A stretch of DNA of 64,000 nucleotides. Origin: Eubacteriales bacterium (GTDB lineage: Bacteria > Bacillota > Clostridia > Oscillospirales > QAKW01). The stretch is from the NCBI GenBank assembly GCA_045603925.1, contig JAZUNB010000057.1, positions 123 to 64,122 of the forward strand, written 5' to 3'. Shown here piece after piece: positions 2,398-63,467 of the stretch; the stretch's first letter is position 1; each line of letters begins with the position of its first letter. The notes beneath the pieces were generated by a model, which was not told the DNA's origin, did no database searches, and saw only the letters and a list, made by a program, of their open reading frames with translations. The translations under genes were made by a program, and so were the position numbers.

Positions 2398-2401
2398 ATT
2401 A

Positions 2402-3012: not shown

Positions 3013-3035
3013 AAAAAGCACCTTCCTTTCACCCA

Positions 3036-3073: not shown

Positions 3074-3096
3074 TATTGGTAAAATATTCAAACAAT

Positions 3097-3131
3097 AAAA
3101 TCCGAGCGGGTCATTTGACCCGCTCGGATTT
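3097..3131. terminator. bidirectional terminator, copy 1 of a repeated hairpin
   Basis: TCCGAGCGGGTC-attt-GACCCGCTCGGA flanked by A and T runs. It is about 85% identical over ~40 nt to the hairpin at 3713-3749. Confidence 0.7.
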
Positions 3132-3344
3132 TTAAAATATATTATCATCGGGGATGTGTTCCATAATATCCTCGACCCGACATTGCAAAATATTGCAAAG
3201 CTTATCAATGGTATTGACTTCCACATTTTTATTCTTGCGAAGGCGATCCAATTGGGAGCGGTTAACATTATGATGGGTATACAGATCATATTGCGAGATC
3301 CCGCGTTTTTTCATCGTTTCCCATAAACGGTCATATTTGATCAT
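3132..3344 (-). CDS. small XRE/Cro-CI family HTH regulator
   Basis: 70 aa counted from the ATG at 3344, preceded by AAGGAGGA. The HTH segment is ISQYDLYTHHNVNRSQLDRLRKNKNVEVNTIDKLCNIL. Confidence 0.8.
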   Translation of the reverse strand: MIKYDRLWETMKKRGISQYDLYTHHNVNRSQLDRLRKNKNVEVNTIDKLCNILQCRVEDIMEHIPDDNIF

Positions 3345-3448
3345 CCGCTCTATCCTCCTTGAAAATGTCCTTGACTTTCTTTCATTATCGCTATAAAATG
3401 AAGAAAATAATAGTGTTCGTATAATGACACTTTCAATGAGGTGCATCA

Positions 3449-3712
3449 ATGTGTTTTGAAGAATATGTATACAATAGCCTGCTGGGAAATCTTCAAGTTC
3501 CCCATTCCGAAGTTAACAGCTTATTTGAAGAAGGAATGCCTTGTGAAAAATGGTATGCCGAGATGCTTGAAGCATATTCGCGGCTTTGCAAGCGGTTGGG
3601 ATCTGCGAACGAAGATGATGATGTCGAAACCATTATCTCTATGCTTTGGCGCATACAACGAGAAATCAGCCTTCATATGTATCGATATGGTGTAAAATTC
3701 AATAAAGAATAA
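3449..3712 (+). CDS. hypothetical 87-aa protein divergent from the XRE gene
   Basis: GAGGTG lies 6 nt before the ATG, a TATAAT box sits at 3419-3424, and a terminator follows directly. I recognise no family. Confidence 0.6.
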   Translation: MCFEEYVYNSLLGNLQVPHSEVNSLFEEGMPCEKWYAEMLEAYSRLCKRLGSANEDDDVETIISMLWRIQREISLHMYRYGVKFNKE

Positions 3713-3749
3713 AACCCGAGCGGGTCTAATGACCCGCTCGAGTTTGTTT
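3713..3749. terminator. bidirectional terminator, copy 2 of the repeated hairpin
   Basis: CGAGCGGGTC-taat-GACCCGCTCG with flanking A and T runs, in the same orientation as copy 1. Confidence 0.7.
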
Positions 3750-5342
3750 TTATAATTGGTCCGCGGCTTCTAAGATCCGAAGGTGATTTTCTTCAAAGAC
3801 CGCCAGATCGGTGGTATAATCATCGAAGGCGCGCATGACATTGGTGCAAAGGGCATCGGCCTTAGCTTTATCCTTTTTAGCGATAGCGAGGAGCAATTCG
3901 CAGTCCTCCAAGCCTGCCCGCATCTGCTCGGCGCGGATGCTGAGCCAGGGGCCGTTGCCGTTGCCCGGATAGGAAATATGGCTATCGCCGGTGGGCCAGA
4001 GGCGAACCCCGTCATCGGAGATGGCGCAGGTATGCTGCCGCAGATGATCCATATTTCCCTGAAAGGAGGCAAAACCCCAATGCAAAAAGCCCTTCAGGTC
4101 AAAGAGATAATTACCATAATGCAAAAGGCGGGAGCGGATCAACTCAAAATCCAAAAAGCGGTTGAGCCATTTGCCGCCGGGATGGCAGCAGGTATAATGC
4201 CAAAGTTCATCTCCAAGAGCGCGGAAGGTCTCAAATCTTTCCCGCTTTCGTTGATAATCACGGGTGGGAATGACCCAGCAATCTACACTGCCGCCAAGTT
4301 CTGTATGACAAACGGCATCCATCAAACGCATCCCCGGCATAAACTTACGCACCATCCCGCTGATGATACGGTAATCCTCAGTCTGCTCCTCGTAGGGCTC
4401 ATCCCCCACGTGCTGAACAGCCCCATCATACCAACCGTTTTTCTTCAAAAAAGCCGTCCATTGGGGTAAGAATTGAGCCAGAAAATTATAGCCTTCAGGG
4501 CTGTCGGCATAGACCTTGCGTCCTTCGGGACGGTAGAACAGCCAATATTTTCCGATTCTTACATAATTTTTCTGCGTCAGATGCCCGAATTCTAAATGCT
4601 CAAAGCCGCAATCCAGCGCAAAACGGATCATCTTTTCCATAAAGGAAAAATCAAAGGTATACTTCCCGCCCTTTTCGAAAATCTTAATGGCATCCATCCG
4701 CAGAATAATATGGGTCTGGCGGGTACGGGCCATCAAGGTGTAATATTTTTTCAGTTCCGCCAGCCATTCATCGGTATATAGTTCGAGCCCCTGATCCTTC
4801 CCTACATTTTCCGGATGATACCAATTGCTGACCGAAATATTCTTTTTCTCCGGCACCACTGCTTTATGGACAGTGATCCGAACGGGAACCGTTGCCTCTT
4901 CCTCGCCGATCTTCAATGCCAGAGATCCGGTTTCGATGCCGACCTTAGCATCCACCGGAATCTTCCAGCAAACGTAAAAGGCGCTGACCTCTTTTTCCAC
5001 TACATCACCGCCATCGTCCATTGGTTGCAGAATATCAAAGATAGGGAAAGGTGCCTTGCGGGTGGAATACTCCGGCTTAGGCTGATCCAATTCCAGCACC
5101 CGCCAAATCTCATCGTTGGAATTACGCTCGGCACATACATCCAAAAGGCGATAACATTCCAAATTCAGCGTACCCTCATAGGAAACGGTGATCTTCTCCC
5201 CCGCCTTGGTGCCCTGCACCAGGATCTGGGCCGCGGCAAAACTGCCGCGAGGGGTATGGACATCGATCCGATCCGATGCCGAAGGATAATCAACCACATC
5301 GGGATACAGCCATTCATTGGCGCTCACAACCATCGACTTCAT
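3750..5342 (-). CDS. DUF4091-like (glycoside-hydrolase-like) protein
   Basis: 530-aa cytoplasmic ORF with N terminus SANEWLYPDVVDYP, which I recall as typical of DUF4091 proteins. The family assignment is from memory only. Confidence 0.55.
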   Translation of the reverse strand: MKSMVVSANEWLYPDVVDYPSASDRIDVHTPRGSFAAAQILVQGTKAGEKITVSYEGTLNLECYRLLDVCAERNSNDEIWRVLELDQPKPEYSTRKAPFPIFDILQPMDDGGDVVEKEVSAFYVCWKIPVDAKVGIETGSLALKIGEEEATVPVRITVHKAVVPEKKNISVSNWYHPENVGKDQGLELYTDEWLAELKKYYTLMARTRQTHIILRMDAIKIFEKGGKYTFDFSFMEKMIRFALDCGFEHLEFGHLTQKNYVRIGKYWLFYRPEGRKVYADSPEGYNFLAQFLPQWTAFLKKNGWYDGAVQHVGDEPYEEQTEDYRIISGMVRKFMPGMRLMDAVCHTELGGSVDCWVIPTRDYQRKRERFETFRALGDELWHYTCCHPGGKWLNRFLDFELIRSRLLHYGNYLFDLKGFLHWGFASFQGNMDHLRQHTCAISDDGVRLWPTGDSHISYPGNGNGPWLSIRAEQMRAGLEDCELLLAIAKKDKAKADALCTNVMRAFDDYTTDLAVFEENHLRILEAADQL

Positions 5343-30443: not shown

Positions 30444-30476
30444 AAAAAAAGACCCCCCTTGGGGGGTCTTTTTTTA
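30444..30476. terminator. bidirectional terminator
   Basis: A7-GACCCCCC-tt-GGGGGGTC-T7, between convergent yloV and the adhesin gene. Confidence 0.8.
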
Positions 30477-33400
30477 TTCGTTTTCTGCCTTTTTCTTTTT
30501 GAAATACAATCCGATCAAGCCGCCGTTGATCACCAGCAAGGCCAACAGCAACCCAAAGGTGCTCTCCCCGCCGGTATAGGGGCTGGTGGGTGCAACCTCA
30601 TTGGGCTTGGGCTCGGGCTGAGGCTCGGGCTGGGGTGCGGGCTCGGGATCGGGAGTAGGCTCGGGATCGGGAGCAGGAACCGGCTCGGGCTTCTCAACGG
30701 GGGTCACCACCGCATTGGTCTTCACCTCATTGGCGCCCTCCAGCGCAGTTGCCTGGTTTTGGACAGTGACATCGCTTTCCGTTACCTTCACCTTGAAGGA
30801 GACGGTCTCGCTCTCCCCTGCCGAAAGATTCAGACTCCAGGTGATCTTACCGTCGGCATAAACGCCGCCGTGATCGGCAGAGCCTTCCACATAAGCGGTA
30901 TACTGCGGAATGGTATCGGTCACCGTTACCTCTGCGGCAAAATCATCGCTGTTGGTATAGGTGATCTTATAAAGCAGCTCATCGCCTTTTTTCACCTTCT
31001 TACCGTCGATGCTGACGGTAGGCTCGGCGGAAGCAAAGACCTCCTTCTTCACCAGATCCTCTTCCACAGGATTCTTCACAGCATTGGTATGGTATTCATT
31101 TTCGCCCTCCAGCACCGTTGCACTGTTTTCAACAGTCACCTTGGCTTCGGTCACCTTCACTTTAAAGCTGACCGTTACGGTTGCATCCGGTGCAACACCC
31201 GGCAGGGTCCAGGTGATCTTGCCGTCGGCATAAACGCCGCCGTGATCGGCAGAACCTTCCACATAGGAGGTGTACTGCGGGATGGCATCGGTTACAGTGA
31301 CATCCACCGGCACACTGTCGAAATTGGTATAGGAGATCTGATAAAGGAGAATATCATTCACCTCAACAGTCTTGCCCTCAATGGAAACAGTGGGTTCTGC
31401 CGAGGTATATACCTCTTTCTTGGTGATCACGCTGTGATGGGCATTGCGGAAGATCAGATCCGCTCTTCCCTTCTCGCCGGTGATCACGGTGCGGCTCTCA
31501 TCGATATACAACTGCCCTGCACCGTTGTCCACCACATAAAGGGTAACGGTATAAACATTCACATCCCAGCGGATGAGGCCCCAAAGAGCATTCTTCTTTT
31601 CGCGGATCTTCAGCACATAGGTGCCCGCGGTCTTAAACTCCAGCGTATCAAAGACCACATTTCCGTCGGGATCATTCTGCTTGGTCTGCTTTTCATTGCC
31701 GTCTACGCTCAACACAAAATCGAAGGCCTTCATCGCCTCGCCCTCATAGAGCTTCTTTGCCTTGGGCGTATAATAGGCGGGCTTGGGCTCATAGGAATTG
31801 GTGAAATTCAGCGCCTCAACCGTGGCGATCCGTACATTGGCGGCATCGGTCACAATGCGAACACCGCTTTCCTTGGCGCTCACCTTGGGAATCAGATTTC
31901 CTGCGCCGTCATCCTCCATCTGAACGGTGATATGATATTGGGTCGCGGTATCATAGGTAATTCCCCGATCGGCCGCACCGCTCTTCTCCAGGATCACATA
32001 ATAATGAGTTCCTTCCGTCGTATAGGTCTCTGCGCCGAAGGTAAAGCTGCCGTCGGCGGCATTGGTGGTCTGATCCAGGGGGCTCTTATTGCCGATGGCA
32101 AAATCCGCCTCTGTTTCATATAACTCAAAGGTAAAGACCTTATCGGGGCCGGCCACTGCGCTCCAATCGCCGTTCAGCGTCTTTTGACCGTTGAAGGTGA
32201 CCTGCGCCGCGCCGTGCGTATAGGTGTTTTCAAAGGCAACGGGAACATTCTGATAATCCGCACGGGCACTGAGAGTACCGTCGCCGTTATCGGTCACCGT
32301 TACCACTACGGTAAAGGCCGCATCCTCATCATAAGCCACTCCGGGAGCATTGCCGGGAACCTCCACCACCGCATAGGTATGAACGCCCGGGGCGGTATAG
32401 CGGATGGGCTCAAACTGAATGGTGCCGTCTGCCAGGCTATGGCCTCTGGCCGCCACATTACCGCCCTCCAGCACCAGGAAGTCAAACATTCCGTCGGTCA
32501 TAGCCAGAGGCGCGCGGGTAGCGCTGTTGATATAAGACTTCTCGCCCACCAGGGTAATGGAGGTCTCCTCCACCGAATAGGTATTGGTAAAGACCGCCTT
32601 ATCAGCATTGCCCATACCGGGGCGATACATTGTTACCTGCCCGCTCAACTGACCGTTGCCGGGATCGGTAATATTTACGGTAATATGATACTCACCGGCA
32701 TCATATCCGATTCCGCCTGCCTTATGGGAGAGATCCTCCTTCAAAACGAAGTAGCGGATGCCTTCCTCCCCGTCCTCATAATGCAGTGCCATCTTGAAAT
32801 CGCCTGCGCCGGAGACGGTCGCGGTTCTGACAGGGATGGAATCAACGATCTCAAAGCGCTCATTGGCGGCAAACAACCGGAAGGTGAAATCTTGATTGGT
32901 CACCGCCGACCAGTCGCCCCGCAATTCCTTTGCGCCGTTGATCTCCACATCTACCGCCTTTGCGCTGTAGGAATTGAGGATCTGAAGGGTTGCGGCATTG
33001 GAGGAGGGGGTCACGATCAGCACGCCGTTTTCATGGCGGACCGTTACGGTAACGGTATAAACATTGGGATCATGCGTCACGCCGCCCTTCCCGCTATGGA
33101 GTTCTTTTACATAATAGGTATAGGTCTTCTCGGCGTAATCAACGCCCAGATCGGCAGGGGTATAGGAAATGGGAGAGAAGGAGAAGGTTCCGTCTGCCCG
33201 ATTGCTTACTGCTTCGATCCGATCGGTGCAGGAAGCATCCCGATAAAGACCGATGGTGAATTCTCCTGCCGCAAGGCTTCTGCCTGCCAGCTTCTTTTCG
33301 CCGCCGATGGTAACCTCACCAAAGCCGGTCACGGTATAGGTGTTGACAAAATCTGCGGCGTTGACCGAAGCCATCTCGCCCAGCTTATGGATCACTGTCC

Positions 33401-36400
33401 GGGCCGAGAGCCCCCCCGCACCGTTATCGGTAACGGTTACGGTGATATGGTATTCGGCGTTATCATAGGTAACACCGTTCCATACATATCTTCCGCTTTC
33501 GGGATCCAAAACCGCCCCTGCGGGGATCACCTCGGTCCATTGATAGTGATAGATCCCCACCTGCTCAAAGGTCAACCGAACCGTATCGCTCTGCCCCGAA
33601 GCGACGGGATAAACCGCGCTCCAGGCATTGGCATCGGTCAGCGGGCGGAAAGCGCCGTCGGTACGAACCAGCTTGGTATCAAAAAGCGCGCCGCTTGCCC
33701 CCAGTCCGTTGAGGGTCTTGGAATAACCGAGCTCCACCTGAACGGGAGCGAGCCGATACTCATTGGTAAACTGCGCGGTATAGACCCCGTTTACGGGATT
33801 CACCGTTGCGCCGCTGTTCAGCTCCACCAAGGTGCGGTCGGTGATGGCAAGATCACTGCCGTTGGGTGCGGTCACAACCGTATAAAGGTATACCGCAGGA
33901 TCATAATACATTCCGTTCAGCAGATATTTTCCGCTTGCTCCGTCCAAAACTGCCCCTGCGGGAATGTCTTCGATCACTTTATAGGAATGGGTGCCCGGTG
34001 TATTCAGGAAAATATTAAAGGTCGCATCCCCCAGAGCGGAGGCGGTTACGGTGGTGCCGACGGTCCCTGCCGCCACATTTCCCGCACCGTCGCTGGGATA
34101 CATCGTAAAGCTGAAGGAGGGCAGAGGAATATCGGCTTTTGCGGGATCATGGAGAGTCTTATGAACCTGCAGGGTGGTTGCGGTGGAATTCAGCTCATAA
34201 ATATTCTCAAAGACTGCCGCCACCGAAATGCCGCTGATCTGCTCGGGATCATTGGCGGTATACTGCGGAGTGGCGCTTACATGGGCCTCCTCCTGCACCG
34301 CGATCTCCAGCACACCGTCCATATCCTCATCGGTCACAATGACCGCAAATAGCGCCTGCATGGTGGAATAATCCATTCCGGGAGTATCGATCCCTGCGGG
34401 CAGCTGCTCCGAGGGCTTTACTTCGATGACCCGCAGATAATAGGTGCCCGTATCCTCGAAGGTCAAGGTAAACGCCCCCTGCTTGGCGGCATTGGCGCCG
34501 ACCTTCAGGTATTCATTGCCGTTGCTGTCGGAAATATCGGAATAGGTTCCGTCCGGCAGAAGCATCTGCAAAACAAAGGCGAATTCTTCATTGCCGCTGT
34601 AGGGAGTATTGGCGGTCAGAACCTTGGTCACATCCAAAGTCACCGGCACCGAAACGGGTACAAAGGTATCGGGATAGCGGTTATCAAACTCCGCGCGACT
34701 CTCGGTATTGGCCGTAACGGTACCCCTTGCGGCGGTGGCGTTTTGATCGCCGTTGATGTTGTCCAGCTTAAAGCCCTGAAGGGCATCCTCGGTCACCGTA
34801 TAGGCCGTTCCTGCGGGAATGCTGTGAACGGTGATGGATTCATCATTCTTCAATCGGATGGGCTCGCCGCTCTCATAAGTAAGGAAGCCATTGGCATCTA
34901 CTGCAACGCGGGTATTTTCATTGGTAAGGAAGGTATCCCCCGCCTTGATCTTTTCGCCCGAAAGCTGCACACGGAAAGTGAATTCCTTGGTAGCCATGGC
35001 GGCAGGATCGGAGGGGAGATTATGAAGGATCTCTTTTCCGATCAGAAGATCACCGTATTGATTTGGGGCATTGGTGATCACCACCGGAACCATCTGGGTA
35101 TTGGCCGCCCCATAGGCGGGGATCACCGCAGAGGCGGGGGCGTTCACAGCCTGCGCCTGCCCTGCCACCGTTATGCCCACCACCGAATAATCACCGCCGA
35201 TCTGCTCGGCGATCTGCACTCGGGTACCTACCGGAATTCCGGAGATATAGGCCGTTACATCGGCGGGCATGGTAACGGTAAAGCGATGGTTGGCCATAGC
35301 CGACATGGTTACATTGGGAAGGGCATCCCCGTTGGCATCCGTAAGGATGGGTGCCGCGGCAGCACCCGCGGGAAGGTTGGAAAGGGTGATCTCGAAGGTA
35401 TAGGCATTGGCATCGGTGATGGTGCCCTGCACTTCCTTCCTGAGGGTAATGCCGGTGGCGGGCGCTACCTTAAAGGTACCGTTATTGCCCAAGAAAGCAT
35501 AAACATCCTGCTTGGTGCCGTTTTCAAAAACAGCGGGGAAATCGGAATAGGGCAAGGTATCGGTGGTATTCTCGGCCTTATCATTCTTAAAGCGGTGCAC
35601 CTCACTGAAGATGGTTCCCGCAGGGATATACCACTGATCGGTTGTCCGGTCATACTGCGCCTTGGTGCGCAAGGTCTCTTCGGCGATGGGCATTGTTACG
35701 GTCTGCCGCGCCGTCTGATTATAGATATACCGATGATGGTAATAGGTACCGCTCGGTCGGTTGGCACCGCCCACAGGATTTCCATTGGCATCCAGAACGG
35801 GAGTATCCTCGGTGTAGTAATAGCGGCTGTTGTCTGCGGCGGGATGGAAATGAGATTCCGCCACCATGGCCGATTCCACCTCATCGGCATCGGGGATTCC
35901 GTTTTGGTTGCGGTCATTGCCGATGGCCCATTCATTGGTATAGAAGGAAACGGTACCGTCGGCATTACGGTGAATATGACCGCCTTTGGCCAGATGCTCG
36001 GCGATCTTTTGCTCCAGATTTACCGAATTAATATCGTTGCGCAGGCCCACCTCAAAGACCAGCTGCATGGGAAGAGCAGTCTCCTGACTGAATTTTTCCA
36101 CAACATCGGGCTGATCCTCCTTCAGCGTCACCTTATACTCCACCGTGGGAAGCAGGGACGCGGGGATCTTAAAGAAGACCGTCTGGTGCAGGGTAGCAAG
36201 ATCGGTACGGATCAATACCACCACATGCATCATATCGCTGTCGCCGTTCACGCCCAGATAACCGTAGGAACGGTTGGCGTAAACCGCGCCGTTGGGTGCA
36301 TCGGTATAGCCGGACTCTTTGTCCCAGAAGCCCACATAGTTTCCGTTGGCATCGGCGTACCAGCCGATATAATTGCTCCAATGATCCTCATCGGCATAGT

Positions 36401-38126
36401 AAAGCTGCTGATCCTGATAGGCATAGCCGATCAACTGCTGCGCCTGAGAGGAGGTCAGACCGGGGATCCGCTCCTTCACGGTACGAACCAGCTCATCACC
36501 GCGGGCATTGGGGGCATCTACTGTCCCCAGCGCGCCTTCGTTCATGCTTTTGGCCACGCCCTTGCCGGTATATAGAACGGTTCCGCCGTTGCCGTCGCTC
36601 ATCAGCACGCCCTTCATATCAGATACATGCATCAGCTCGCCCAGCTCATCCTCAAAGGTTACATAACCGGAATAGTTGGCGTTGCCGCCTTCAACCAGAG
36701 TGGCATAGGACTCGGCCTTCAGCTCAATCTCTCCGGTGATCTTGGTAAAGGAATCGATCAGACTCTGGGCATCGTTGGCATAATAATAAGTATCCACATA
36801 ATTCATGGCCTCTGCAGCCGCCTCGCGGCGAACGCTCAGCCCGCCCTGCCCGGAAATAACCGTCACATTCTCGCCGTTTGCGGCGGCAAGATAATTATTC
36901 CAATAGCCCACCAGGGTCTCATTGGAGCCGGCGGGATACAGGGTGTTGGTTGCTGCCTGGTTGTTTTCGGTACCGAGACCTAAGGTCAGGAAAAGAATAT
37001 CCTTCTGATCGGCATCGGTCTCCTGATAATGGGCCGCCACCCGCCCTCTCACATAAGCGGCAGTCAGCTGGGTGAGGAAGGTAATACGATCGTTGGTAGC
37101 GGTTCCGTCACCGGTGTTGGAATTGCCGATGGCGGTATAATCGGTGGTCGCAATGGTAGGGGCGCCATCGGTCATCAGCACCAATACGGGCAGTCGCTCG
37201 GCACCCGCCTGCACCTTCCCTTCGGGAACAGTGGTGTCGGTTACTGCCAGAAATTGATTCATCGCCTGATAAAGACCGTTTTGGATGTAGGTGCCGCCGT
37301 TGGCCCGCTTGGAGCTATCGGTCACCGCCGCGCCCGCCTCGGTCTTAAGACCATCCTTCACCGATACATGAATAGCGGCGGAAGAATCCACATAGGTCGC
37401 CTGACCGTTGGCTTGCCACCGTCTGGTTCCCCAATTATAGGTATAAAGGGTGGAGGTGGTGGTGGCGGCATCCACCGAGAGATATTCCTGATTAACACCG
37501 CTGTAACGCCCCAGGGGCAACACAACGGTTGCGGTTTGCGGGGTGGCCGCCTGATTGCTTTCGGCATTGCCGGAATACAGCACAACGCCCACACGGTTAT
37601 TGGTATTCTGCGCCATCAGCTTATCGATGGTGGCGTTGGTGGCCTCGATCATCGCGTTGATCAGCGACATATCGATTCCGTTGGCAGTGAGGTAATTATT
37701 GCCGTAACGCACCGTTCCCACCTCATAGGTATTATCGACCATGGAGCCCGATAGATCCAATACCAGCATGGTATCGGTAGGCGAAGAGGTATGGCCGGTA
37801 ATGGAAAGGTTGGAGGCAATGGCGGAAAGGGCAACCAGAAAATTCTTACTGTCCTTCAGCGCAACTCCCGGCAGCTCAGATGTGGCGCCGGTATAGACCG
37901 ATTTATCGGTCCAGACACCGCCTGCAAACTCGGTATCCATCTTATTGGGGCCGAAATAATTCTCCCAATTGACGGTCGAGGGGTCGGCTTTCTTACTGCC
38001 TGCCACAATATTCAGCGTCTGCTCCGCTGCAACATTCAGCGTCATGGCAGGCATAGAAGAGAGGATCATGGCAATGCAAAGTACAACGCTCAGGATCCGA
38101 TGGGTGATTTTTCTTTTTGCGGTCAT
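30474..38126 (-). CDS. 2550-aa sortase-anchored surface adhesin (vWA domain, Spy0128-like isopeptide repeats, DUF11-like repeats)
   Basis: Signal peptide MTAKRKITHRILSVVLCIAMILSSMPAMTLNVAAEQ. vWA MIDAS motif VLDLSGSM plus LVLMTDGAPT. At least eight repeats of the pilin isopeptide-linkage type (e.g. FTFELYETEADF...GTHYYVILEKSGAADRGITYDTATQYHITVQMEDDGAGNLIP). Two tandem ~120-aa DUF11-like repeats and a PEP-rich linker. The C terminus has SPYTG, a hydrophobic helix, then KKKKAENE. AAGGAGGG lies before the ATG. Confidence 0.9.
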   Translation of the reverse strand: MTAKRKITHRILSVVLCIAMILSSMPAMTLNVAAEQTLNIVAGSKKADPSTVNWENYFGPNKMDTEFAGGVWTDKSVYTGATSELPGVALKDSKNFLVALSAIASNLSITGHTSSPTDTMLVLDLSGSMVDNTYEVGTVRYGNNYLTANGIDMSLINAMIEATNATIDKLMAQNTNNRVGVVLYSGNAESNQAATPQTATVVLPLGRYSGVNQEYLSVDAATTTSTLYTYNWGTRRWQANGQATYVDSSAAIHVSVKDGLKTEAGAAVTDSSKRANGGTYIQNGLYQAMNQFLAVTDTTVPEGKVQAGAERLPVLVLMTDGAPTIATTDYTAIGNSNTGDGTATNDRITFLTQLTAAYVRGRVAAHYQETDADQKDILFLTLGLGTENNQAATNTLYPAGSNETLVGYWNNYLAAANGENVTVISGQGGLSVRREAAAEAMNYVDTYYYANDAQSLIDSFTKITGEIELKAESYATLVEGGNANYSGYVTFEDELGELMHVSDMKGVLMSDGNGGTVLYTGKGVAKSMNEGALGTVDAPNARGDELVRTVKERIPGLTSSQAQQLIGYAYQDQQLYYADEDHWSNYIGWYADANGNYVGFWDKESGYTDAPNGAVYANRSYGYLGVNGDSDMMHVVVLIRTDLATLHQTVFFKIPASLLPTVEYKVTLKEDQPDVVEKFSQETALPMQLVFEVGLRNDINSVNLEQKIAEHLAKGGHIHRNADGTVSFYTNEWAIGNDRNQNGIPDADEVESAMVAESHFHPAADNSRYYYTEDTPVLDANGNPVGGANRPSGTYYHHRYIYNQTARQTVTMPIAEETLRTKAQYDRTTDQWYIPAGTIFSEVHRFKNDKAENTTDTLPYSDFPAVFENGTKQDVYAFLGNNGTFKVAPATGITLRKEVQGTITDANAYTFEITLSNLPAGAAAAPILTDANGDALPNVTMSAMANHRFTVTMPADVTAYISGIPVGTRVQIAEQIGGDYSVVGITVAGQAQAVNAPASAVIPAYGAANTQMVPVVITNAPNQYGDLLIGKEILHNLPSDPAAMATKEFTFRVQLSGEKIKAGDTFLTNENTRVAVDANGFLTYESGEPIRLKNDESITVHSIPAGTAYTVTEDALQGFKLDNINGDQNATAARGTVTANTESRAEFDNRYPDTFVPVSVPVTLDVTKVLTANTPYSGNEEFAFVLQMLLPDGTYSDISDSNGNEYLKVGANAAKQGAFTLTFEDTGTYYLRVIEVKPSEQLPAGIDTPGMDYSTMQALFAVIVTDEDMDGVLEIAVQEEAHVSATPQYTANDPEQISGISVAAVFENIYELNSTATTLQVHKTLHDPAKADIPLPSFSFTMYPSDGAGNVAAGTVGTTVTASALGDATFNIFLNTPGTHSYKVIEDIPAGAVLDGASGKYLLNGMYYDPAVYLYTVVTAPNGSDLAITDRTLVELNSGATVNPVNGVYTAQFTNEYRLAPVQVELGYSKTLNGLGASGALFDTKLVRTDGAFRPLTDANAWSAVYPVASGQSDTVRLTFEQVGIYHYQWTEVIPAGAVLDPESGRYVWNGVTYDNAEYHITVTVTDNGAGGLSARTVIHKLGEMASVNAADFVNTYTVTGFGEVTIGGEKKLAGRSLAAGEFTIGLYRDASCTDRIEAVSNRADGTFSFSPISYTPADLGVDYAEKTYTYYVKELHSGKGGVTHDPNVYTVTVTVRHENGVLIVTPSSNAATLQILNSYSAKAVDVEINGAKELRGDWSAVTNQDFTFRLFAANERFEIVDSIPVRTATVSGAGDFKMALHYEDGEEGIRYFVLKEDLSHKAGGIGYDAGEYHITVNITDPGNGQLSGQVTMYRPGMGNADKAVFTNTYSVEETSITLVGEKSYINSATRAPLAMTDGMFDFLVLEGGNVAARGHSLADGTIQFEPIRYTAPGVHTYAVVEVPGNAPGVAYDEDAAFTVVVTVTDNGDGTLSARADYQNVPVAFENTYTHGAAQVTFNGQKTLNGDWSAVAGPDKVFTFELYETEADFAIGNKSPLDQTTNAADGSFTFGAETYTTEGTHYYVILEKSGAADRGITYDTATQYHITVQMEDDGAGNLIPKVSAKESGVRIVTDAANVRIATVEALNFTNSYEPKPAYYTPKAKKLYEGEAMKAFDFVLSVDGNEKQTKQNDPDGNVVFDTLEFKTAGTYVLKIREKKNALWGLIRWDVNVYTVTLYVVDNGAGQLYIDESRTVITGEKGRADLIFRNAHHSVITKKEVYTSAEPTVSIEGKTVEVNDILLYQISYTNFDSVPVDVTVTDAIPQYTSYVEGSADHGGVYADGKITWTLPGVAPDATVTVSFKVKVTEAKVTVENSATVLEGENEYHTNAVKNPVEEDLVKKEVFASAEPTVSIDGKKVKKGDELLYKITYTNSDDFAAEVTVTDTIPQYTAYVEGSADHGGVYADGKITWSLNLSAGESETVSFKVKVTESDVTVQNQATALEGANEVKTNAVVTPVEKPEPVPAPDPEPTPDPEPAPQPEPQPEPKPNEVAPTSPYTGGESTFGLLLALLVINGGLIGLYFKKKKAENE
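30603..30692 (-). repeat. proline-rich (PEP/PAP) linker-coding low-complexity DNA
   Basis: Encodes KPEPVPAPDPEPTPDPEPAPQPEPQPEPKP. The DNA consists of iterated GGCTCGGG-like units. Confidence 0.8.
30693..31421 (-). repeat. tandem duplication of a ~120-codon DUF11-like module inside the adhesin gene
   Basis: Unit 1 spans 31050-31421 (KKEVYTSAEPTVSIEGK...). Unit 2 spans 30693-31049 (KKEVFASAEPTVSIDGK...). Long identical stretches include YVEGSADHGGVYADGKITW. Confidence 0.85.
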
Positions 38127-57625: not shown

Positions 57626-58693
57626 ATGTGGATGTATTTATTACTTGCCGCCGGTATCTTTATGGGCTGGTCTCTGGGCACCAATGATGCGGCAAACGCT
57701 TTCGGTACCGCGGTAGCCACCCGCGTGGTGAAATACCGCACCGCCGTTACGATCATCGCCGTCCTGGTGATGGTGGGCGCCTTCTTAAACGGTGCCAACA
57801 ATATTGACAAGCTGGCTTCTCTTTCTGCCAACAATGCAGTGTCCTCCTCCGCCGAGGAGGTGCAGGAGGCCATCGCCAACGGAACCCTGGGCGCCATGAA
57901 GCTGAAATCGGCCTTGAAGGCCTTCATCATCTTCACCTGTGCGGCTGTAACCGTTTTTATCATGAGCTATCTGAAGTTCCCTGTTTCCGCTAACCAATCC
58001 ATTGTGGGCGCGGTGATCGGCTGGGGTCTCTGCTATGCGGATTATTCCAATCCCATCGTATTGAAGTCCAACCTGACGGAGCTTCTGGAGTTTGCCTCCA
58101 CCTGGCTGCTCTGCCCCCTGGGCGCGGCCATTATCTCCTTTGTTCTGGTCTTCTTTACCAAACGGTTTATTGAAGACCGACTGACCACCTTGGGCAGCTA
58201 CGATACCATCATCAAGATCGGCTATCTGGTTGCCGGCGCCTTTGCTTCCTACAGCATCGGGCAAAACAGCTCCGCCAGCGTGACCGCGTTCTATTACGAT
58301 CCCACCGGTCTTGGCGCCAACCTTTTGACCAATGCAAGAGTAGCCGCCGTTTTGGGCGGTGCCGCCATTGCACTGGGTGTACTTACTTATTCCAAGAAGG
58401 TTATGATGACCGTCGGCACCAGCATCGCCGATATCAGCCAGGTAGACGGCTTTGTGGTCATCATCGCCATGTCCCTGACCATCATCATCATGGGTAAGTG
58501 GATGGGGATCCCCGTTTCCACCTCTCAGGCGGTGGTCGGCGCAGTAATGGGCGCAGGCCTGGTGAAGGGCATCAAGCATGTTCGCTTCGGCGTATTCAAG
58601 AATATCGCCATTGCCTGGGTCAGCTCCCCTGTTTCCGCAGGCTTGCTTACCTATCTGGTTGCTCTGGTAACCAAGGGCTACTTCGGCGCATAA
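57626..58693 (+). CDS. pit: inorganic phosphate transporter, PiT family
   Basis: GTNDAANAFGTAV signature; polytopic. Confidence 0.92.
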   Translation: MWMYLLLAAGIFMGWSLGTNDAANAFGTAVATRVVKYRTAVTIIAVLVMVGAFLNGANNIDKLASLSANNAVSSSAEEVQEAIANGTLGAMKLKSALKAFIIFTCAAVTVFIMSYLKFPVSANQSIVGAVIGWGLCYADYSNPIVLKSNLTELLEFASTWLLCPLGAAIISFVLVFFTKRFIEDRLTTLGSYDTIIKIGYLVAGAFASYSIGQNSSASVTAFYYDPTGLGANLLTNARVAAVLGGAAIALGVLTYSKKVMMTVGTSIADISQVDGFVVIIAMSLTIIIMGKWMGIPVSTSQAVVGAVMGAGLVKGIKHVRFGVFKNIAIAWVSSPVSAGLLTYLVALVTKGYFGA

Positions 58694-58710
58694 GCTCCAT
58701 ATAAAAAACA

Positions 58711-58744
58711 AAAAATACGGAAGGCTCAGCCTTCCGTATTTTTT
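58711..58744. terminator. bidirectional terminator at the left edge of the AT-rich islet
   Basis: A-run, ATACGGAAGG-ctcag-CCTTCCGTAT, T-run. Confidence 0.8.
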
Positions 58745-59669
58745 ATGCCACAAATCCTTTTCGCATCAGATTCCAAAAGTTATTGCTTACCGTCATACCG
58801 GTATAGAAAACATACTCGCCATTTGTTTCAACAATAAAACGGTCTGTTGCGGGAAGAAATATGATCCTATTAGTCACAACACTCTTCTGATCTTTTTCAA
58901 AAGGAATAATGAGTTCTATTGGAGAATCATAATAATAAACTGCATACCATTCATTCGCTCTGGGCATTTCCTCATTAGAACTGTATGAATAAAATGAAGA
59001 AATCAATCTTCGCTCATTTGCTCGAACCAAGTTGTCAAACAGTTCATGCTTAGGCGTTATAACAATCTTTTCCCCTTTTTCATCCAATTGTAGCCAAATT
59101 TCTGTCGGCATTTCGAAAAAATTTGTTTTCTCTTCTACATCCTTTACTAACGATGAATCAGTAAGTAACGACTCTGCATATTCAATCAGCTCAATATTTA
59201 CATCAAGTCCCGTATAGATGACAGAGGGTTGCTCATTGATCACAAATTCAAAGCTACCATCTCCTGTTAAAATAAAGGATATGTTCCGCGCTGAAACAAT
59301 CGCATCTTCCAATCGCATTGGAACAGCCACCGAAACAATATCATCATAGCAATACCTCAAAATAATTTCCTCGGAATCGACTCCGACTTCATACACATAA
59401 TTACCCTGATAATAATGCGTTCTCACATCTCGTGCCCGATTGAGCTTTACCAATTCATCATATTGCGAATCGGTTTGTAGCAATGTAATCATTTTTCCTT
59501 TCGAAAAAAGTTCTATGCGATCCGGGGAATCAAATATCCCTACATTTTCGTATGCATTGATTGTTGGTGAATTACTCAAAAAGTAGTAAAGCAAATATGC
59601 ACCAGTAATACCAATGATCAATATGATTCCAATACACAGGTATTTTATATTTTTTTTATTCGAGCTCAT
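58743..59669 (-). CDS. membrane-anchored protein of unknown function with an internal duplication (islet gene 3)
   Basis: N-terminal anchor IKYLCIGIILIIGITGAYLLYYFL and GGAG 7 nt before the ATG. Its two halves align (e.g. SFEFVINEQPSVIYTGLDVN vs RFIVETNGEYVFYTGMTVS). Codon usage is AT-rich. Confidence 0.7.
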   Translation of the reverse strand: MSSNKKNIKYLCIGIILIIGITGAYLLYYFLSNSPTINAYENVGIFDSPDRIELFSKGKMITLLQTDSQYDELVKLNRARDVRTHYYQGNYVYEVGVDSEEIILRYCYDDIVSVAVPMRLEDAIVSARNISFILTGDGSFEFVINEQPSVIYTGLDVNIELIEYAESLLTDSSLVKDVEEKTNFFEMPTEIWLQLDEKGEKIVITPKHELFDNLVRANERRLISSFYSYSSNEEMPRANEWYAVYYYDSPIELIIPFEKDQKSVVTNRIIFLPATDRFIVETNGEYVFYTGMTVSNNFWNLMRKGFVA

Positions 59670-60465
59670 AAATATACTCCTGCATCATAGTTGTACCATC
59701 TGTTTTTCTTACTACAACAGAAAGTGCAAGATGGTATTTTCCAGCATCATTTTTTCTCAACCATGTATTATTCTCAACACGATAAGAATCGACTTCACTC
59801 TCATCATAAATAGAATAAATATGTTTCGCAACATATATTTCTATACTTTTTTCAGTCACTCCCTTGACCAAAGAATGATCAAAAGAATTAATAATTCCAT
59901 CTACCGGTGCACGACTATACATAATCTTTCCGTCTTTATTTACCGTCACACTACAAATATCCGCATAGATAAAATCTGTATCGCCTACTTTTAAAGAATA
60001 ACGAACATTATACGCCTCTTTTGCCTCATAATATTTACAAAAGTCAAATACATATCCGTTTAATTCTCCATAGAATTCAGCTATATGTGCATCGGCAATT
60101 TTTTTAGCCTGCTCCTCTGTAATTGCTGCATTTTTGGTTTTGAGGAAAGAATCGTTCGCTATATATGCGGTCAGTTTTCCCTCTTGATTAATCCAATATT
60201 CTTCATTTTCTGAAGCATAGATATCTGTATATGTATTCCGAGTAATTTGTTCTGTTTGTTTATAAGTCACCACTCTCTGTTCTTTACTTGGCAAGATTAC
60301 AGTTTTTGTTTTCAACGCATCCGCTCTTTTATATATTTCTTTAACTTCTATTGGGACTGCGCTCGAAACATCACTCATCGGAAACATTGCAAAAGTAGTG
60401 ACACTAAGTATCAAAGATAAAGCCAAAACAGCGCTCAATATAATCACAATCTTTCTTTGCTTCAT
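59656..60465 (-). CDS. signal/anchor-bearing protein of unknown function (islet gene 2)
   Basis: N-terminal hydrophobic segment IVIILSAVLALSLILSVTTFA and GGAAGGAGA before the ATG. The segment ITEEQAKKIADAHIAEFYG is reminiscent of PepSY-like domains (weak). Confidence 0.7.
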   Translation of the reverse strand: MKQRKIVIILSAVLALSLILSVTTFAMFPMSDVSSAVPIEVKEIYKRADALKTKTVILPSKEQRVVTYKQTEQITRNTYTDIYASENEEYWINQEGKLTAYIANDSFLKTKNAAITEEQAKKIADAHIAEFYGELNGYVFDFCKYYEAKEAYNVRYSLKVGDTDFIYADICSVTVNKDGKIMYSRAPVDGIINSFDHSLVKGVTEKSIEIYVAKHIYSIYDESEVDSYRVENNTWLRKNDAGKYHLALSVVVRKTDGTTMMQEYIYELE

Positions 60466-60481
60466 AAACAGGTTCTCCTTC

Positions 60482-61564
60482 CTAGTAATTATAGCCTAAA
60501 TTCAAGGCCTCCATACGGCTTGTTCCAACATATCTGTTAGCGAGACAGTCCGCATAACCCGGGCGGTTTTGCTCAATATATAAATCCGCTCTATTCATCG
60601 CATTTTCTGCATTTATTCCATTCGAACTATACTGAAAAAACTTACCTACCCATTCATTTGTCGAAGTTGTATAAATTGTTTCTTTCCACCCTACTGCAGC
60701 AAATGCTCCTTTATTTCGTGCTACATCAACTAAATTACCGTAGGTGGAATTAGTAATCCCAGTAGAACATGCCACAAACATTATTAATTTTACTTGTGAT
60801 AATTGAGATGAGGTATAATTAGAAAGCGCAACGGTGGAAGACGAATTATTTGCATACAAACTACTCTGATTTCCATTTGAGTCATATAAAAAATAAATTC
60901 CTCCATATTCATATCCATGCCCTCTCAAAACAGTGATATCAGAGGACGGAATAGAACTATAGACTACAGATGCATTATTGTGCAAATACTCGCCGGCATC
61001 AAACCCAACACTCCAAAGATAAGGCAAAGAGTAATCAGCTGTAGGTGTATTATCATTACCAGGAGAGCTGCTAGTTGAGGTGAAAATTCGCACAGTCCGA
61101 TAATCATATCGTTTCGCTCTTAACAAATATTGAGAAGAAGATGTCCCGGATACGGTATACACACGGATATAGTATGTCACCCCCGCCTTAACATTCGCTT
61201 TAATCTGTTCGTGTAGCCCTACACCTCGTTCGGAATATGCAATACACGAAAACGCCTCGTCACCGATATACAGTTCCATATCATAATCACAATTTGAAGG
61301 TATATCGCCTAACCAAAAAGTAACCATGCCTCCGGTTGAAAATGTCACTTTCCACCAATCTTCATCTGTTCCGCTAGATATCGTACCGTAATTATTATTA
61401 TCATCTGCGGTTAAATCGGCCGTCAAAGCGGTATTGTTGCTTTCACTCTCGGTTACATTTGCTGCGCTTACCTTTGGTATCGGTGCAATTGGTAACGCCA
61501 AAAACACCAACACCATAGAGACAACCACTGCCGTTTTTTTATACATTTTTTGTATTCTTTTCAT
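60482..61564 (-). CDS. secreted PPC-domain protein with a C-terminal caspase-like (clan CD-like) His/Cys domain (islet gene 1)
   Basis: The ATG at 61564 is preceded by AAGGAG. The signal peptide ends PKVSA-AN. The PPC (pre-peptidase C-terminal) pattern is ESNNTALTADL...GTISSGTDEDWWKVTF...DYDMELY...AGVTYYIRVY...YLLRA. The C-terminal domain has ITVLRGHG (His codon 60917-60919) and LIMFVACSTG (Cys codon 60767-60769). Confidence 0.7.
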   Translation of the reverse strand: MKRIQKMYKKTAVVVSMVLVFLALPIAPIPKVSAANVTESESNNTALTADLTADDNNNYGTISSGTDEDWWKVTFSTGGMVTFWLGDIPSNCDYDMELYIGDEAFSCIAYSERGVGLHEQIKANVKAGVTYYIRVYTVSGTSSSQYLLRAKRYDYRTVRIFTSTSSSPGNDNTPTADYSLPYLWSVGFDAGEYLHNNASVVYSSIPSSDITVLRGHGYEYGGIYFLYDSNGNQSSLYANNSSSTVALSNYTSSQLSQVKLIMFVACSTGITNSTYGNLVDVARNKGAFAAVGWKETIYTTSTNEWVGKFFQYSSNGINAENAMNRADLYIEQNRPGYADCLANRYVGTSRMEALNLGYNY

Positions 61565-61598
61565 TTCTTTACTCCTTAAAATTAACACGAAGCCCCAT

Positions 61599-61637
61599 AA
61601 AAAGCGTGCAGAACCAATCTATTCGGTCCTGCACGCT
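61599..61637 (-). terminator. intrinsic terminator/attenuator directly upstream of islet gene 1
   Basis: The minus strand reads AGCGTGCAGGACC-gaatagatt-GGTTCTGCACGCT (13 bp with one G-U pair), followed by TTTTTAT. Confidence 0.65.
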
Positions 61638-61728
61638 ACTTGAATAATATAATTCTCTCCATATTAAAAAAACAAATCCAGAAGCGCCATAACCGACTAG
61701 TATTCCCTCTAACACCAACCATCGTCAT
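61636..61728 (-). CDS. candidate 30-codon leader micro-ORF
   Basis: The minus strand reads AAAGGAGAGA-ATG, encoding MTMVGVRGNTSRLWRFWICFFNMERIILFK. The TAG stop (61636-61638) lies inside the 5' arm of the terminator. It is too short for the supplied ORF track. Confidence 0.3.
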   Translation of the reverse strand: MTMVGVRGNTSRLWRFWICFFNMERIILFK

Positions 61729-61892
61729 TCTCTCCTTTCTTGATCATCCTTCCAACTAAATTTATCATATCATGCTTTGTTTTAAAAATCTATTCGCACC
61801 ATTCACAAAATATCAAAACCGTTTTTAGATAAAAAAACAAAATCTCTTTTTTTGACACAAAACTATTGTATATTCCCCCACACCTATGGTAA

Positions 61893-61936
61893 AATAATAA
61901 AAGAGCGCATCGAATGTTTAACAAAAGTTCGAAGCG
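61893..61936. terminator. bidirectional terminator at the right edge of the islet
   Basis: AAAAGAGCGCaTCGAA-loop-TTCGAaGCGCTCTTTTTT. Confidence 0.7.
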
Positions 61937-61943
61937 CTCTTTT

Positions 61944-63467
61944 TTATTCATCCATTCCCAAAAAGCGGGTATTGTAATAAACCGATTTTTTCTGCAGCTC
62001 CTCATTGAGGGACTCAAAGCCGAATCGCTCGGTGAGGGTCTGCTCCTTGGAGAAGAGGTTGGTGCCCAGCCCCAATCGCTCCCCCTCGATCTCAACGCCC
62101 ATGGCGGCAAGAGTTGTGGGGAACAGGTCATAAACACCGAAAGAGCGGTTTTTAGTCTCCGCAGGCTCCGCCGCCGCATTAATCATGCAGTTATAAACGG
62201 TGCGGGTATAGTTTTCATCGATCTCTTCCAAAAATTCGGGATCCATGGTGAGATGATCCCCGCTGAGAACAACGGTGGTATTCTCATAGAAGGGCTGCTC
62301 TTGGATCCATTCGATCAAGGCCGCCACCTGCTTTGCCGAGCAGGAGAGCACATTGGCATATTGCTCCTCATACTTGCTCTCGCAAAGGGCGCATTCATAG
62401 CCATCGGGGAAATGAGTATCGGCGGTCAACATGGTGAAATTGAAAGGCTCCGATCCTGCCGCCAGGCGGGTCAGTTCCTCCTTAGCAAAGGCAAAGAGCT
62501 TTTCATCCTCAAAGCCCCACCATTCCCGATAATCCTCGGGCAGGCGCCCCTGCTCCTTTAGGGAGTTGATGTCCACGATCTCATAATTTCCGTGCTCGGT
62601 GAAATAAGATTCCCGATCGGCAAATTCCGCATCACTGCCCACCAAGAGGGTCTGATGATACCCCTCCTTTTCCAGCAGCTCGCCGATGGTGACTACCCCC
62701 GGCAGATAGGAATCCTCACCGCCGTAGTTTTTCGCGGTCAGCGGCACCTTCACCACAAGCCCCGAAGTCTGGGCCACCATGGCCGCCGCGGTCCAGGTAG
62801 TTCCCCCGAAGGAAAGGGCGCCGCCCAGATCCTCATCATGGGAGAAATTGATGTTCTCTTCCGCCAGGGCGGAAAGCTCGGGAATAAAATCAGCGGTGAT
62901 CTGCCCGCCGGCTTCCGGCTCGGCAAAGGTATTTTCCATAGACTCCAAAAAGATATAGATCAGATTGCGCTTGGTTTCGGGGAAGCGGAGCGCTACCTCA
63001 TTGGGATCGGCATAATGGGTCTTGATGAAATCCGATTCGGTGCGGGAGGCGCCGATATAGCCGAATACATTCAGCTGGGTGATAAACAGCACCAGCGCCA
63101 CCGCCAGATTAAAGATCGAAAAAGGAAGCGCGCTCTTTTTAAACCGGCCGCAAGCCTTTGTTTTGCAATAAGCGAGATAACGGTGTTTTTCTTGAAATTT
63201 TTTCTGCAATTGACCCGATAATAAATAATAGAGGAAGATCTCGGCGCCGGTCAGCACCACTCCGAAGAGCCCTACCCGAATACCGGCACTGCCCATCAGG
63301 TTGATATTGGTTCCTGCGGCAGAGGTCTTCATCTGATAAAGGATCTGATCCAGAGAAACGCAATCATATTTACTCAGCAGCCAGACCGTCCAGAGCAACA
63401 GAAAATTGCCCAGCAACAAAATAATATGAGCCGCCAAAACAGACTTGCGGATCTTTCGTTTTTTCAT
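61944..63467 (-). CDS. LTA synthase family (sulfatase-domain) membrane protein
   Basis: N-terminal TM helices followed by an extracellular sulfatase domain, with NLIYIFLESMENTF and TADTHFP motifs. Confidence 0.82.
   Translation of the reverse strand: MKKRKIRKSVLAAHIILLLGNFLLLWTVWLLSKYDCVSLDQILYQMKTSAAGTNINLMGSAGIRVGLFGVVLTGAEIFLYYLLSGQLQKKFQEKHRYLAYCKTKACGRFKKSALPFSIFNLAVALVLFITQLNVFGYIGASRTESDFIKTHYADPNEVALRFPETKRNLIYIFLESMENTFAEPEAGGQITADFIPELSALAEENINFSHDEDLGGALSFGGTTWTAAAMVAQTSGLVVKVPLTAKNYGGEDSYLPGVVTIGELLEKEGYHQTLLVGSDAEFADRESYFTEHGNYEIVDINSLKEQGRLPEDYREWWGFEDEKLFAFAKEELTRLAAGSEPFNFTMLTADTHFPDGYECALCESKYEEQYANVLSCSAKQVAALIEWIQEQPFYENTTVVLSGDHLTMDPEFLEEIDENYTRTVYNCMINAAAEPAETKNRSFGVYDLFPTTLAAMGVEIEGERLGLGTNLFSKEQTLTERFGFESLNEELQKKSVYYNTRFLGMDE

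Follow-up and report, generated by a model that had tools for sequence, protein, structure and literature searches.

In a 64,000-nucleotide stretch from an Eubacteriales bacterium (assembly GCA_045603925.1, contig JAZUNB010000057.1, positions 123 to 64,122; the whole 64-kb stretch is called the window below), three tightly packed genes lie in AT-rich DNA between pit, a phosphate transporter gene, and a gene for an LtaS-like protein, here called ltaS. A reading of the letters alone (the original prediction) had described this islet as foreign, self-contained and undescribed, possibly a protease with membrane-bound partners. The locus thus raises the question of whether the three genes (A, B and C) arrived as a unit, and what such a unit would do for its host. 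The computational analysis reported here identifies the islet as a horizontally acquired operon in which B is the hub, A and B form a widespread core and C is an accessory linked to B; the operon may encode a secreted clan CD protease and a membrane-anchored partner that protects the producer or tethers the enzyme.

An AT-rich operon inserted between pit and ltaS

The limits of the islet were set against empty pit-ltaS junctions of relatives. The islet, its genes and its flanks are the following:

58747-61943, no strand: inserted AT-rich islet, 3197 bp (composition and empty pit-ltaS sites)
60482-61564, minus strand: gene A, 360 amino acids, with predicted Sec-type signal peptide, PPC domain (about 35-155) and CHAT/caspase-fold domain (about 175-345); ATG start with AAGGAG Shine-Dalgarno (SD) sequence
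59656-60465, minus strand: gene B, 269 amino acids, single N-terminal hydrophobic segment and DUF4901 (YcdB/YcdC repeat) ectodomain (Pfam)
58743-59669, minus strand: gene C, 308 amino acids, N-terminal transmembrane (TM) helix and two tandem copies of a domain of about 130 amino acids (model and homologue scan)
57626-58693, plus strand: pit, PHO4-family phosphate transporter, left flank (Pfam family; native composition)
58708-58746, no strand: bidirectional terminator hairpin after pit, ancestral (homologous to the single hairpin of loci L007, L008 and L010), which now also ends gene C
61899-61943, minus strand: hairpin directly after the ltaS stop, the ltaS terminator (hairpin search)
61944-63467, minus strand: ltaS, LtaS-like Sulfatase-family protein with N-terminal membrane region, right flank (family match; native composition)

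The G+C content of the islet was 0.363, against 0.5245 for the remaining window, and its z-score relative to 556 other 3.2-kb windows (mean 0.526, standard deviation 0.025, minimum 0.451) was -6.6, in agreement with the AT-richness that the original prediction had estimated by eye. The codon-level check that it had proposed beside the sliding-window one gave the same picture (0.26-0.33 versus 0.64 in rounded values): G+C content at third codon positions (GC3) was 0.333, 0.259 and 0.330 in A, B and C, respectively, and 0.637 +/- 0.066 (minimum 0.483) in 40 other open reading frames (ORFs) of at least 150 amino acids. The drop in GC3 places the compositional shift at synonymous sites, and it is therefore not an amino-acid effect. 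The ORF coordinates also agree with the gene arrangement as predicted, all three genes being on the minus strand, with a gap of 16 nt between A and B and an overlap of 14 nt between B and C. Each of the three proteins has one hydrophobic segment, N-terminal in every case, and judging by sequence all three products are predicted to be extracytoplasmic. The stop codon of gene C falls within the T/A run of the pit terminator hairpin.

Pit-ltaS junctions of relatives were sought by scanning species-representative genomes with the Pit protein of the window. No record matched this protein exactly. The scan returned 80 loci, all from metagenome-assembled genomes (MAGs) of uncultured Clostridia/Eubacteriales, and most of the records that named a source gave ruminant or other herbivore gut. 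Four of the loci have the GH13-PhoU-Pit synteny in common, at 74-92% nucleotide identity; in the window, a PhoU_div gene precedes pit. In L008 (88% and 85% identity for Pit and LtaS, respectively) and L010 (83% and 71%), the two genes converge on a single hairpin, a bidirectional terminator, in a gap of only about 45-55 nt. The window has kept the homologous hairpin on the pit side, and 3.2 kb separate this hairpin from the ltaS stop. Because pit and ltaS are directly adjacent in both L008 and L010, the islet is an insertion. The empty but otherwise syntenic junctions for which the original prediction had suggested a search were thus found, and the term "foreign" is justified by AT-richness, by shifted GC3 and by the lack of the islet in two related species. 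The ltaS hairpin is also missing from the empty sites and so either belongs to the inserted DNA or arose after the insertion.

A trio that was ancestral at the pit-ltaS junction and was deleted in the relatives is highly improbable. Such a history would draw on the fact that the empty sites seen number two and that L007 is uninformative (see below); against it, GC3 of the three genes is more than 4.5 standard deviations below that of native genes, the same compact one-hairpin junction occurs in two separate species, and homologous trios occupy entirely different neighbourhoods.

No tRNA was found within the window, and no integrase or transposase among its ORFs. Around the islet, no terminal inverted or long direct repeats exceeded chance except for an octamer, TTTTTTAT, of which the window has a copy at each junction and the empty site a single one; apart from this 8-mer, the absence of flanking repeats and mobility genes is as had been described. 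The octamer could be a target duplication or microhomology, but it is also no more than a terminator T-run and is given little weight. No carrier was found with the A profile in IMG/VR or with A in phage and plasmid records; the single match, on a plasmid of Clostridium estertheticum, was weak and confined to the PPC domain. The islet brings a promoter-like site, a leader and terminators of its own, and the same unit is found again in unrelated surroundings, which bears out its description as self-contained.

In the nearest relative, L007 (92% nucleotide identity, Pit 99%), the pit hairpin is kept and is followed by 105 bp of unrelated GC-rich sequence up to the contig end, so this locus says nothing on the presence of the islet. 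Past the pit terminator (L007 10090-10197), where neither islet nor ltaS is seen, the GC-rich sequence contains a hairpin (GGTGTCGAA..TTCGACACC). As L080 and L084 share a portion of this sequence, it is perhaps a small repeat element, and the pit site is perhaps a hotspot. More distant relatives carry other genes after pit, which makes the 3' end of pit a synteny break-point.

Linkage and distribution of A, B and C

Without exception, the recovered A genes have a B-family gene 12-53 nt downstream, in the window and in 8 distinct loci (A-B loci: window, L004, L088, L005, L006, L001 with two tandem cassettes, L002/L003 and L092-96). Likewise, every recovered C-family gene shares 14-17 nt with the end of the B-family gene before it, at 7 of 7 loci (window, L004, L088, L087, L091, L090 and L089). 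The full trio is present in the window, in L004 (an NCBI MAG) and in L088, with identities to A, B and C of the window of 52%, 40% and 38% (L004) and 54%, 40% and 35% (L088), respectively. B is therefore the hub, A-B the widespread core, and C an accessory linked to B. The conservation of the trio as such, which the original prediction had proposed to examine, holds for two other contigs; the conserved core is the A-B pair, with C tied to B. A conserved partner of about 310 amino acids in A-B loci was considered as a form of C and rejected, the genes of about 310-325 amino acids being B-family members.

Pairwise identities of A and B are correlated (r = 0.92), B diverging faster (mean 29% versus 42%). 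The tandem paralogous A-B cassettes of L001 each have their own B, and L005 has an additional B copy. Strict A-B adjacency together with this co-divergence speaks for A and B being a specific functional pair. All sampled cassettes were AT-richer than the DNA of their hosts (G+C of 0.385 versus 0.48-0.53 in L004, 0.376 versus 0.486 in L001 and 0.365 versus 0.454 in L088), and none of the sampled cassettes lies in a context like that of the window.

In L001 (1-3833), a B gene and leader make up the opening 1390 bp, and this sequence is identical to 2443-3833; either the cassette was recently duplicated in tandem or the assembly contains a repeat. Genes for an extracytoplasmic function (ECF) sigma factor and an anti-sigma-like protein adjoin the trio in L088 (2968-4486) and the B-C pair in L089 (529-1751), which has no A immediately upstream; the anti-sigma-like protein of L088 has a sub-threshold PepSY match, that of L089 a DUF4367 match. 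Upstream of B-C in L089 (1950-2090), the product of a small ORF resembles, by eye, a signal peptide with a short hydrophobic stretch after it (..MMLSTTPLQASA/YVICWIISIGA). A Sulfatase/LtaS-type gene adjoins the trio in both L004 (7852-9702) and the window (61944-63467). Conserved synteny was rejected here in favour of a probable coincidence, as the two are not close homologues and differ in orientation.

No member of the A, B or C families bears a name from any source, and NCBIfam and PADLOC gave no match for the islet proteins. A literature search on DUF4901, YcdB/YcdC and secreted PPC-CHAT proteins found nothing relevant. With no database name or paper found to cover these families, all of which are tiny (10-25 relatives in searches over billions of proteins), "undescribed" remains a fitting word for them.

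Domain architecture of protein A

The longest ORF for A reads from a GTG at 61588, and the 360-amino-acid form begins at the ATG behind the AAGGAG sequence. By inspection, its N-terminus is a Sec signal peptide in which Lys/Arg-rich first residues lead into a hydrophobic core and then ..KVSA/AN..; the PPC domain begins straight after this peptide, leaving A without a propeptide. An AlphaFold2 model built from a ten-sequence alignment was of good quality by its own scores (predicted local distance difference test, pLDDT, 84.5; predicted TM-score, pTM, 0.83). For the N-terminal domain, Foldseek of the model against the PDB gave the collagen-binding domains ColG s3b/ColH s3 (1nqd, 4hpk, 3jqw; target-normalised TM-score 0.75-0.83, E 5e-8 to 4e-6). 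For the C-terminal domain, SAVED-CHAT (8tl0) was the top match (E 6e-9), followed at E 5e-5 to 6e-4 by Csx29, DdvA (8rot), separase, caspase-1/-4/-11 and CED-3. A profile of A found nothing significant among PDB sequences (E 1.5).

In the acidic positions of the PPC domain (E-x-E-x-N-N ... D-D ... D-x-D) the A family is invariant, and these presumably resemble the Ca2+ site of ColG structures. In the model of the C-terminal domain, a strand at 208-214 runs into G-H216-G and a strand at 260-264 into A-C266. In clan CD peptidases, the His and Cys of the dyad lie in loops L3 and L4, which follow two neighbouring strands of the central sheet (PMC4357240), and the placement of His216 and Cys266 matches this arrangement. 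Of 10 A homologues, 9 retain the two residues; the tenth, P0010, has neither, and the loss of the two together is as expected of a catalytic pair. Asp280, close to the Cys, is invariant, which makes Arg/Lys a candidate P1 preference. P0010 (360 amino acids) reads ..ANDGWSG.. and ..LLNPFSG.. at the two sites and, on sequence, is likely a pseudo-enzyme.

Pfam matches to both domains were weak. Among the A homologues, PPC was matched at E <= 0.1 in 7 of 10 (best 4e-7) and CHAT in 3 of 10 (best 9e-5); in A itself the CHAT match spans the Cys strand and the helices after it. Since A has the fold and the dyad but misses the Pfam CHAT threshold, it is filed outside CHAT proper, as what the model suggests is a new, compact family of secreted CHAT-like proteins. 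A secreted protein with PPC and caspase-like domains had been predicted for this first gene, and the signal peptide, both folds and the His/Cys dyad speak for that view. The profile and structure searches recommended at the time thus gave sub-threshold Pfam scores and strong Foldseek matches to both folds.

The family is extremely small, with 16 matches among 5.8 billion cluster representatives, the best full-length relative being 44% identical. The A-type PPC module (35-44% identity) is fused elsewhere to Peptidase_C39_2, Peptidase_M23 and DUF3289, as in the metagenome proteins P0012, P0016 and P0014, respectively; this PPC variant can be recognised by the signature E-S-E-S-N-N-T ... D-V-D-W-W ... 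F-W-L-G.

The membrane-anchored proteins B and C

Protein B matches Pfam DUF4901 (PF16244) with 32.8 bits (gathering threshold 27; E 9e-8), and 3 of 12 B-family members match it at E <= 0.01. Of the earlier description of B as membrane-anchored and unplaceable in any family, the membrane anchor therefore stands, and the second part does not, B falling in DUF4901. A profile of B found nothing significant among PDB sequences, and no solved structure could be linked to it. A role for B as a PepSY inhibitor or propeptide domain was considered and found no support: PepSY (PF03413) gave no match in B at E <= 1 and none at E <= 0.01 across the 12 members, and hhalign of B against a PepSY-like neighbour gave a probability of 1.8%. 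The idea that B and C are distant paralogues was rejected (hhalign probability 10%).

Relatives of C were not found by a word-indexed search. An exhaustive HMMER scan recovered 25 among 1.84 billion representatives, including 4 full-length two-domain proteins (35-44% identity), 2 distant two-domain proteins and about 17 single-domain, TM-anchored proteins (about 165-190 amino acids). The AlphaFold2 model of C (pLDDT 87.7) consists of a TM helix and two copies of one alpha/beta domain. Its sole credible fold match in the PDB was YycH (9a5d_B, E 7e-5, probability 1.0; 2fgt, probability 0.9), the rest being noise. Conserved positions of the C family are not catalytic in character, and no kinase lies beside C in the window or at the other C loci examined. 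The original prediction had called C membrane-anchored and unplaceable; with one N-terminal TM helix and no Pfam family, C appears from its model to represent an undescribed family outside Pfam with a weak YycH-like fold.

A conserved leader upstream of gene A

Between the ltaS stop (61944) and the start of A lie 379 nt, with the following features:

61764-61772, minus strand: extended -10-like promoter element TGATATGAT, upstream of the short ORF (consensus match only)
61636-61728, minus strand: leader short ORF (sORF) of 28-30 codons, start at 61728 or 61722, TAG stop, with SD GAAAGGAGAG at 61730-61739
61598-61637, minus strand: intrinsic-terminator-like hairpin of 15 bp (-24.9 kcal/mol, 61637-61603) with T-tract, lying about 35 nt before the start codon of A

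Further sigma-70-like consensus matches lie at 61893-61865 and 61816-61787. The base of the terminator stem takes in the final two nucleotides of the sORF stop. In L004, the leader as read from the sequence has the same layout (SD, then an sORF of 29 codons whose TAA stop adjoins the hairpin), and the contig of L088 starts inside the same hairpin, so that the stop codon abuts the stem at both of the loci with upstream DNA (window and L004). The hairpin arms are nearly invariant in the window, L004 and L088 (CGTGC.G..CC ... GG.TC.GCACG, then T-rich), whose proteins are only about 53% identical. The AT-rich leader with a micro-ORF and an attenuator-like terminator that had been pointed out before is thus present in the form of an SD-preceded sORF and a 15-bp hairpin, with its layout kept in L004.

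Rfam searches of the islet and leader gave chance-level matches only. Searching metagenome contigs for the hairpin pattern CGTGCRGRRCC..GGYYCYGCACG gave 120+ generic palindromic matches, none on contigs encoding A, B or C, the pattern being too unspecific. Loci with A and B only are without the leader hairpin, and L001 and L002 have a different small-ORF element in common. By eye, this element, AGAAAGAGGTGAGTCCYGTGGGA, starts a GTG sORF (L001 1230-1290 and 3675-3735; L002 5965-6060), which in L002 encodes a Cys-rich 28-mer, MGNEEIIQQICKAVPFCGVGLCLPCKSA, and in L001 is cut to 8 codons.

Proposed function and alternative explanations

The general model, to which we give roughly even chances of being correct, is that of a foreign operon for a secreted clan CD protease and a co-diverging, membrane-anchored partner with a protective or tethering role. 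Protein A would leave the cell by the Sec pathway, lose its signal peptide and become a two-domain enzyme, its PPC domain, of the collagenase-type binding kind, directing it to a substrate that could be a dietary or host protein or the surface of a competitor. Its minimal CHAT/caspase-fold domain would act as a clan CD cysteine endopeptidase by means of His216 and Cys266. At the outer face of the producer membrane, the single-pass protein B would bind A through its DUF4901 ectodomain and hold it tethered and/or inactive until release, so that the surface of the producer is protected; A has no propeptide of its own that would do this. Protein C, presumably coupled translationally to B, may join it in a membrane complex by analogy with YycH-YycI (PMC7355866, PMC5013275). 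In the leader, a ribosome that terminates or pauses at the sORF stop would mask the 5' arm of the hairpin, leading to read-through into A. Catalysis by A, binding of A to B, a B-C complex and the logic of attenuation are what we infer from the domain folds, the dyad, the gene linkage and the leader conservation described above.

Several observations weigh against this model or parts of it. Both Pfam scores of A fall below the gathering thresholds (PPC, PF04151: 21.9 bits versus 25.9, E 3e-4; CHAT, PF12770: 18.7 bits versus 24, E 1e-3), and profile searches detected no link between B and PepSY or another family of inhibitors. For C, the match to YycH has a whole-chain TM-score of 0.30 and a large root-mean-square deviation, none of 23 C-family members gave a YycH/YycI Pfam match, and a PDB sequence search found none either. 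In L089, a B-C pair occurs without an adjoining A, which implies that B and C do something for which A next to them is not needed. As for the leader, the peptides of the window and L004 have no common sequence, and a competing structure, in which the 5' arm pairs with about codons 10-16 of the sORF, is predicted in the window but is not clear in L004.

The operon might serve as an interbacterial weapon, a narrower form of the general model that does not contradict it. Here A would be a Sec-secreted protease toxin (bacteriolysin-like or of the Tox-Caspase type) that hits competitors via its PPC domain, and B, with C in some lineages, would provide immunity at the surface. The sharing of the PPC module with Peptidase_C39_2, Peptidase_M23 and DUF3289 heads, the tandem A-B cassettes with the additional B copy of L005, a partner that diverges faster than A yet tracks it, and the homologue without both catalytic residues all lean toward a role in conflict; the AT-richness of all cassettes relative to host DNA fits as well, and Sec-exported caspase-fold C-terminal toxin domains of polymorphic toxins are on record as a precedent (PMC3482391). 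No recognised trafficking or pre-toxin domain of polymorphic toxins and no immunity family was matched, however, in Pfam, NCBIfam or PADLOC, and the B-C pair without A in L089 counts against this reading, so that we regard the weapon as possible but rather unlikely. The same tentative standing is given to the bolder proposal that A-B(-C) is an unrecognised class of mobile Sec-dependent weapon of gut Clostridia, with a swappable PPC domain, a two-part immunity complex of DUF4901 and YycH-like proteins, and a leader attenuator as its switch.

If B and C instead formed a sensor-accessory complex of the YycH/YycI kind on a kinase or an anti-sigma factor, A could cleave B or C as the switch of an envelope signalling pathway. 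YycH, the sole fold match of C, is an accessory protein of the WalK kinase (PMC7355866, PMC5013275); the CHAT-containing anti-sigma factor DdvA (8rot) is among the fold matches of A, ECF sigma and anti-sigma-like genes stand beside the L088 trio and the L089 B-C pair, and B-C occurs without A. Yet neither in the window nor in L004 does the islet contain or adjoin a kinase, sigma or anti-sigma gene, a mobile three-gene cassette without a regulator of its own would have to plug into a resident one, and the likeness to YycH is weak and without sequence support. Signalling of this kind is accordingly judged to be distinctly unlikely. More doubtful still is that A is no hydrolase at all and that A, B and C are structural or adhesive parts of the surface with no logic of enzyme and partner. 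Some clan CD enzymes act as transpeptidases, and A could be one of these or a mere binder, its CHAT sequence score being sub-threshold and its scaffold persisting without the dyad in P0010; on the other side, the dyad is present in 9 of 10 homologues and was lost only as a pair, and A and B are strictly adjacent and co-diverge. The protease with a protective or tethering partner is the reading that we prefer.

Other features of the window

A second AT-rich patch (2400-3750, G+C about 0.39) holds genes for a Phd/YefM antitoxin (2770-3036, minus strand), a Fic/Doc toxin (2402-2773, minus strand) and a Cro/C1-type helix-turn-helix protein (3132-3449, minus strand), and is probably another small acquired module. 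At 30474-38126 (minus strand), a giant ORF of 2550 amino acids contains seven FctA/Spy0128-like isopeptide domains, DUF11 and LRR_adjacent, and its product is predicted from these domains to be a pilin- or adhesin-like surface protein.

Comparison with known systems

If the general model is correct, the islet encodes an extracellular minimal CHAT/caspase protease with dedicated surface-anchored partners, whereas the solved CHAT proteins matched by A belong to cytoplasmic defence or CRISPR-associated systems or are an anti-sigma factor. It would also provide a first functional handle on DUF4901 and on the C family, both without a known role, and would add a small transferable cassette to the protein processing or competition repertoire of uncultured gut Clostridia; the leader would be a compact conserved case of a stop codon abutting a terminator. 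The extreme rarity of the families and the uncultured state of the hosts set practical limits to such use.

With the CHAT and other clan CD peptidases (SAVED-CHAT 8tl0, the TPR-CHAT protein Csx29, separase and caspases), A has in common the caspase-like fold and a dyad in the order His, then Cys. It differs from the matched CHAT proteins, which are not Sec-exported, in its predicted Sec-dependent secretion, in a catalytic domain of only about 170-200 amino acids and in its N-terminal PPC domain, and it has no TPR, SAVED or sensor modules. The N-terminal domain of A has the fold of the collagen-binding/PPC domains of ColG and ColH, but is N-terminal to the enzyme, straight after the signal peptide, and is joined to a putative cysteine peptidase and not to an M9 or M4 metallopeptidase. 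Tox-Caspase polymorphic toxins (PMC3482391) resemble A in being secreted, with a C-terminal caspase-fold domain, a shared N-terminal module and a small partner gene directly downstream; in contrast to them, A has no RHS, LXG, PAAR or other trafficking or pre-toxin domain, and B matches no known Imm family.

As for the partners, C resembles YycH/YycI in being single-pass and N-terminally anchored with repeated alpha/beta ectodomains, and yycH-yycI, like B-C, encode two single-pass proteins in tandem; unlike these, C has no sequence similarity to YycH/YycI and no walRK-type kinase adjoins it. Staphopain-staphostatin, SpeB-Spi and SleB-YpeB are known cases in which a secreted enzyme is encoded together with its own protective or chaperone protein. 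In these systems the enzyme gene is followed by the gene of its dedicated partner, as in A-B, where the two also co-diverge, and in SleB-YpeB the partner is N-terminally anchored and extracytoplasmic, as B is predicted to be; in contrast, B is a DUF4901 protein, for which no relation to staphostatin, PepSY or propeptide-like inhibitors was detected, and has C attached to it.

The leader follows the plan of the leader-peptide attenuators known from Firmicutes (for instance that of tet(M) in Tn916 and those of the erm/bmrCD type), namely an SD-preceded sORF and then an intrinsic terminator before the structural genes, with the layout kept across homologous operons. It departs from them in that the sORF stop abuts the stem, the peptide is not conserved, no conserved antiterminator was found and no Rfam family applies. 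The logic of an enzyme with a cognate partner and attenuation by a leader peptide are thus both already familiar, and on present evidence the islet does not amount to a mechanism of a new category; its novelty lies in the combination of a minimal CHAT-like domain, predicted to be secreted, with an architecture built around B, extreme rarity, and AT-richness that lasts in GC-richer hosts.

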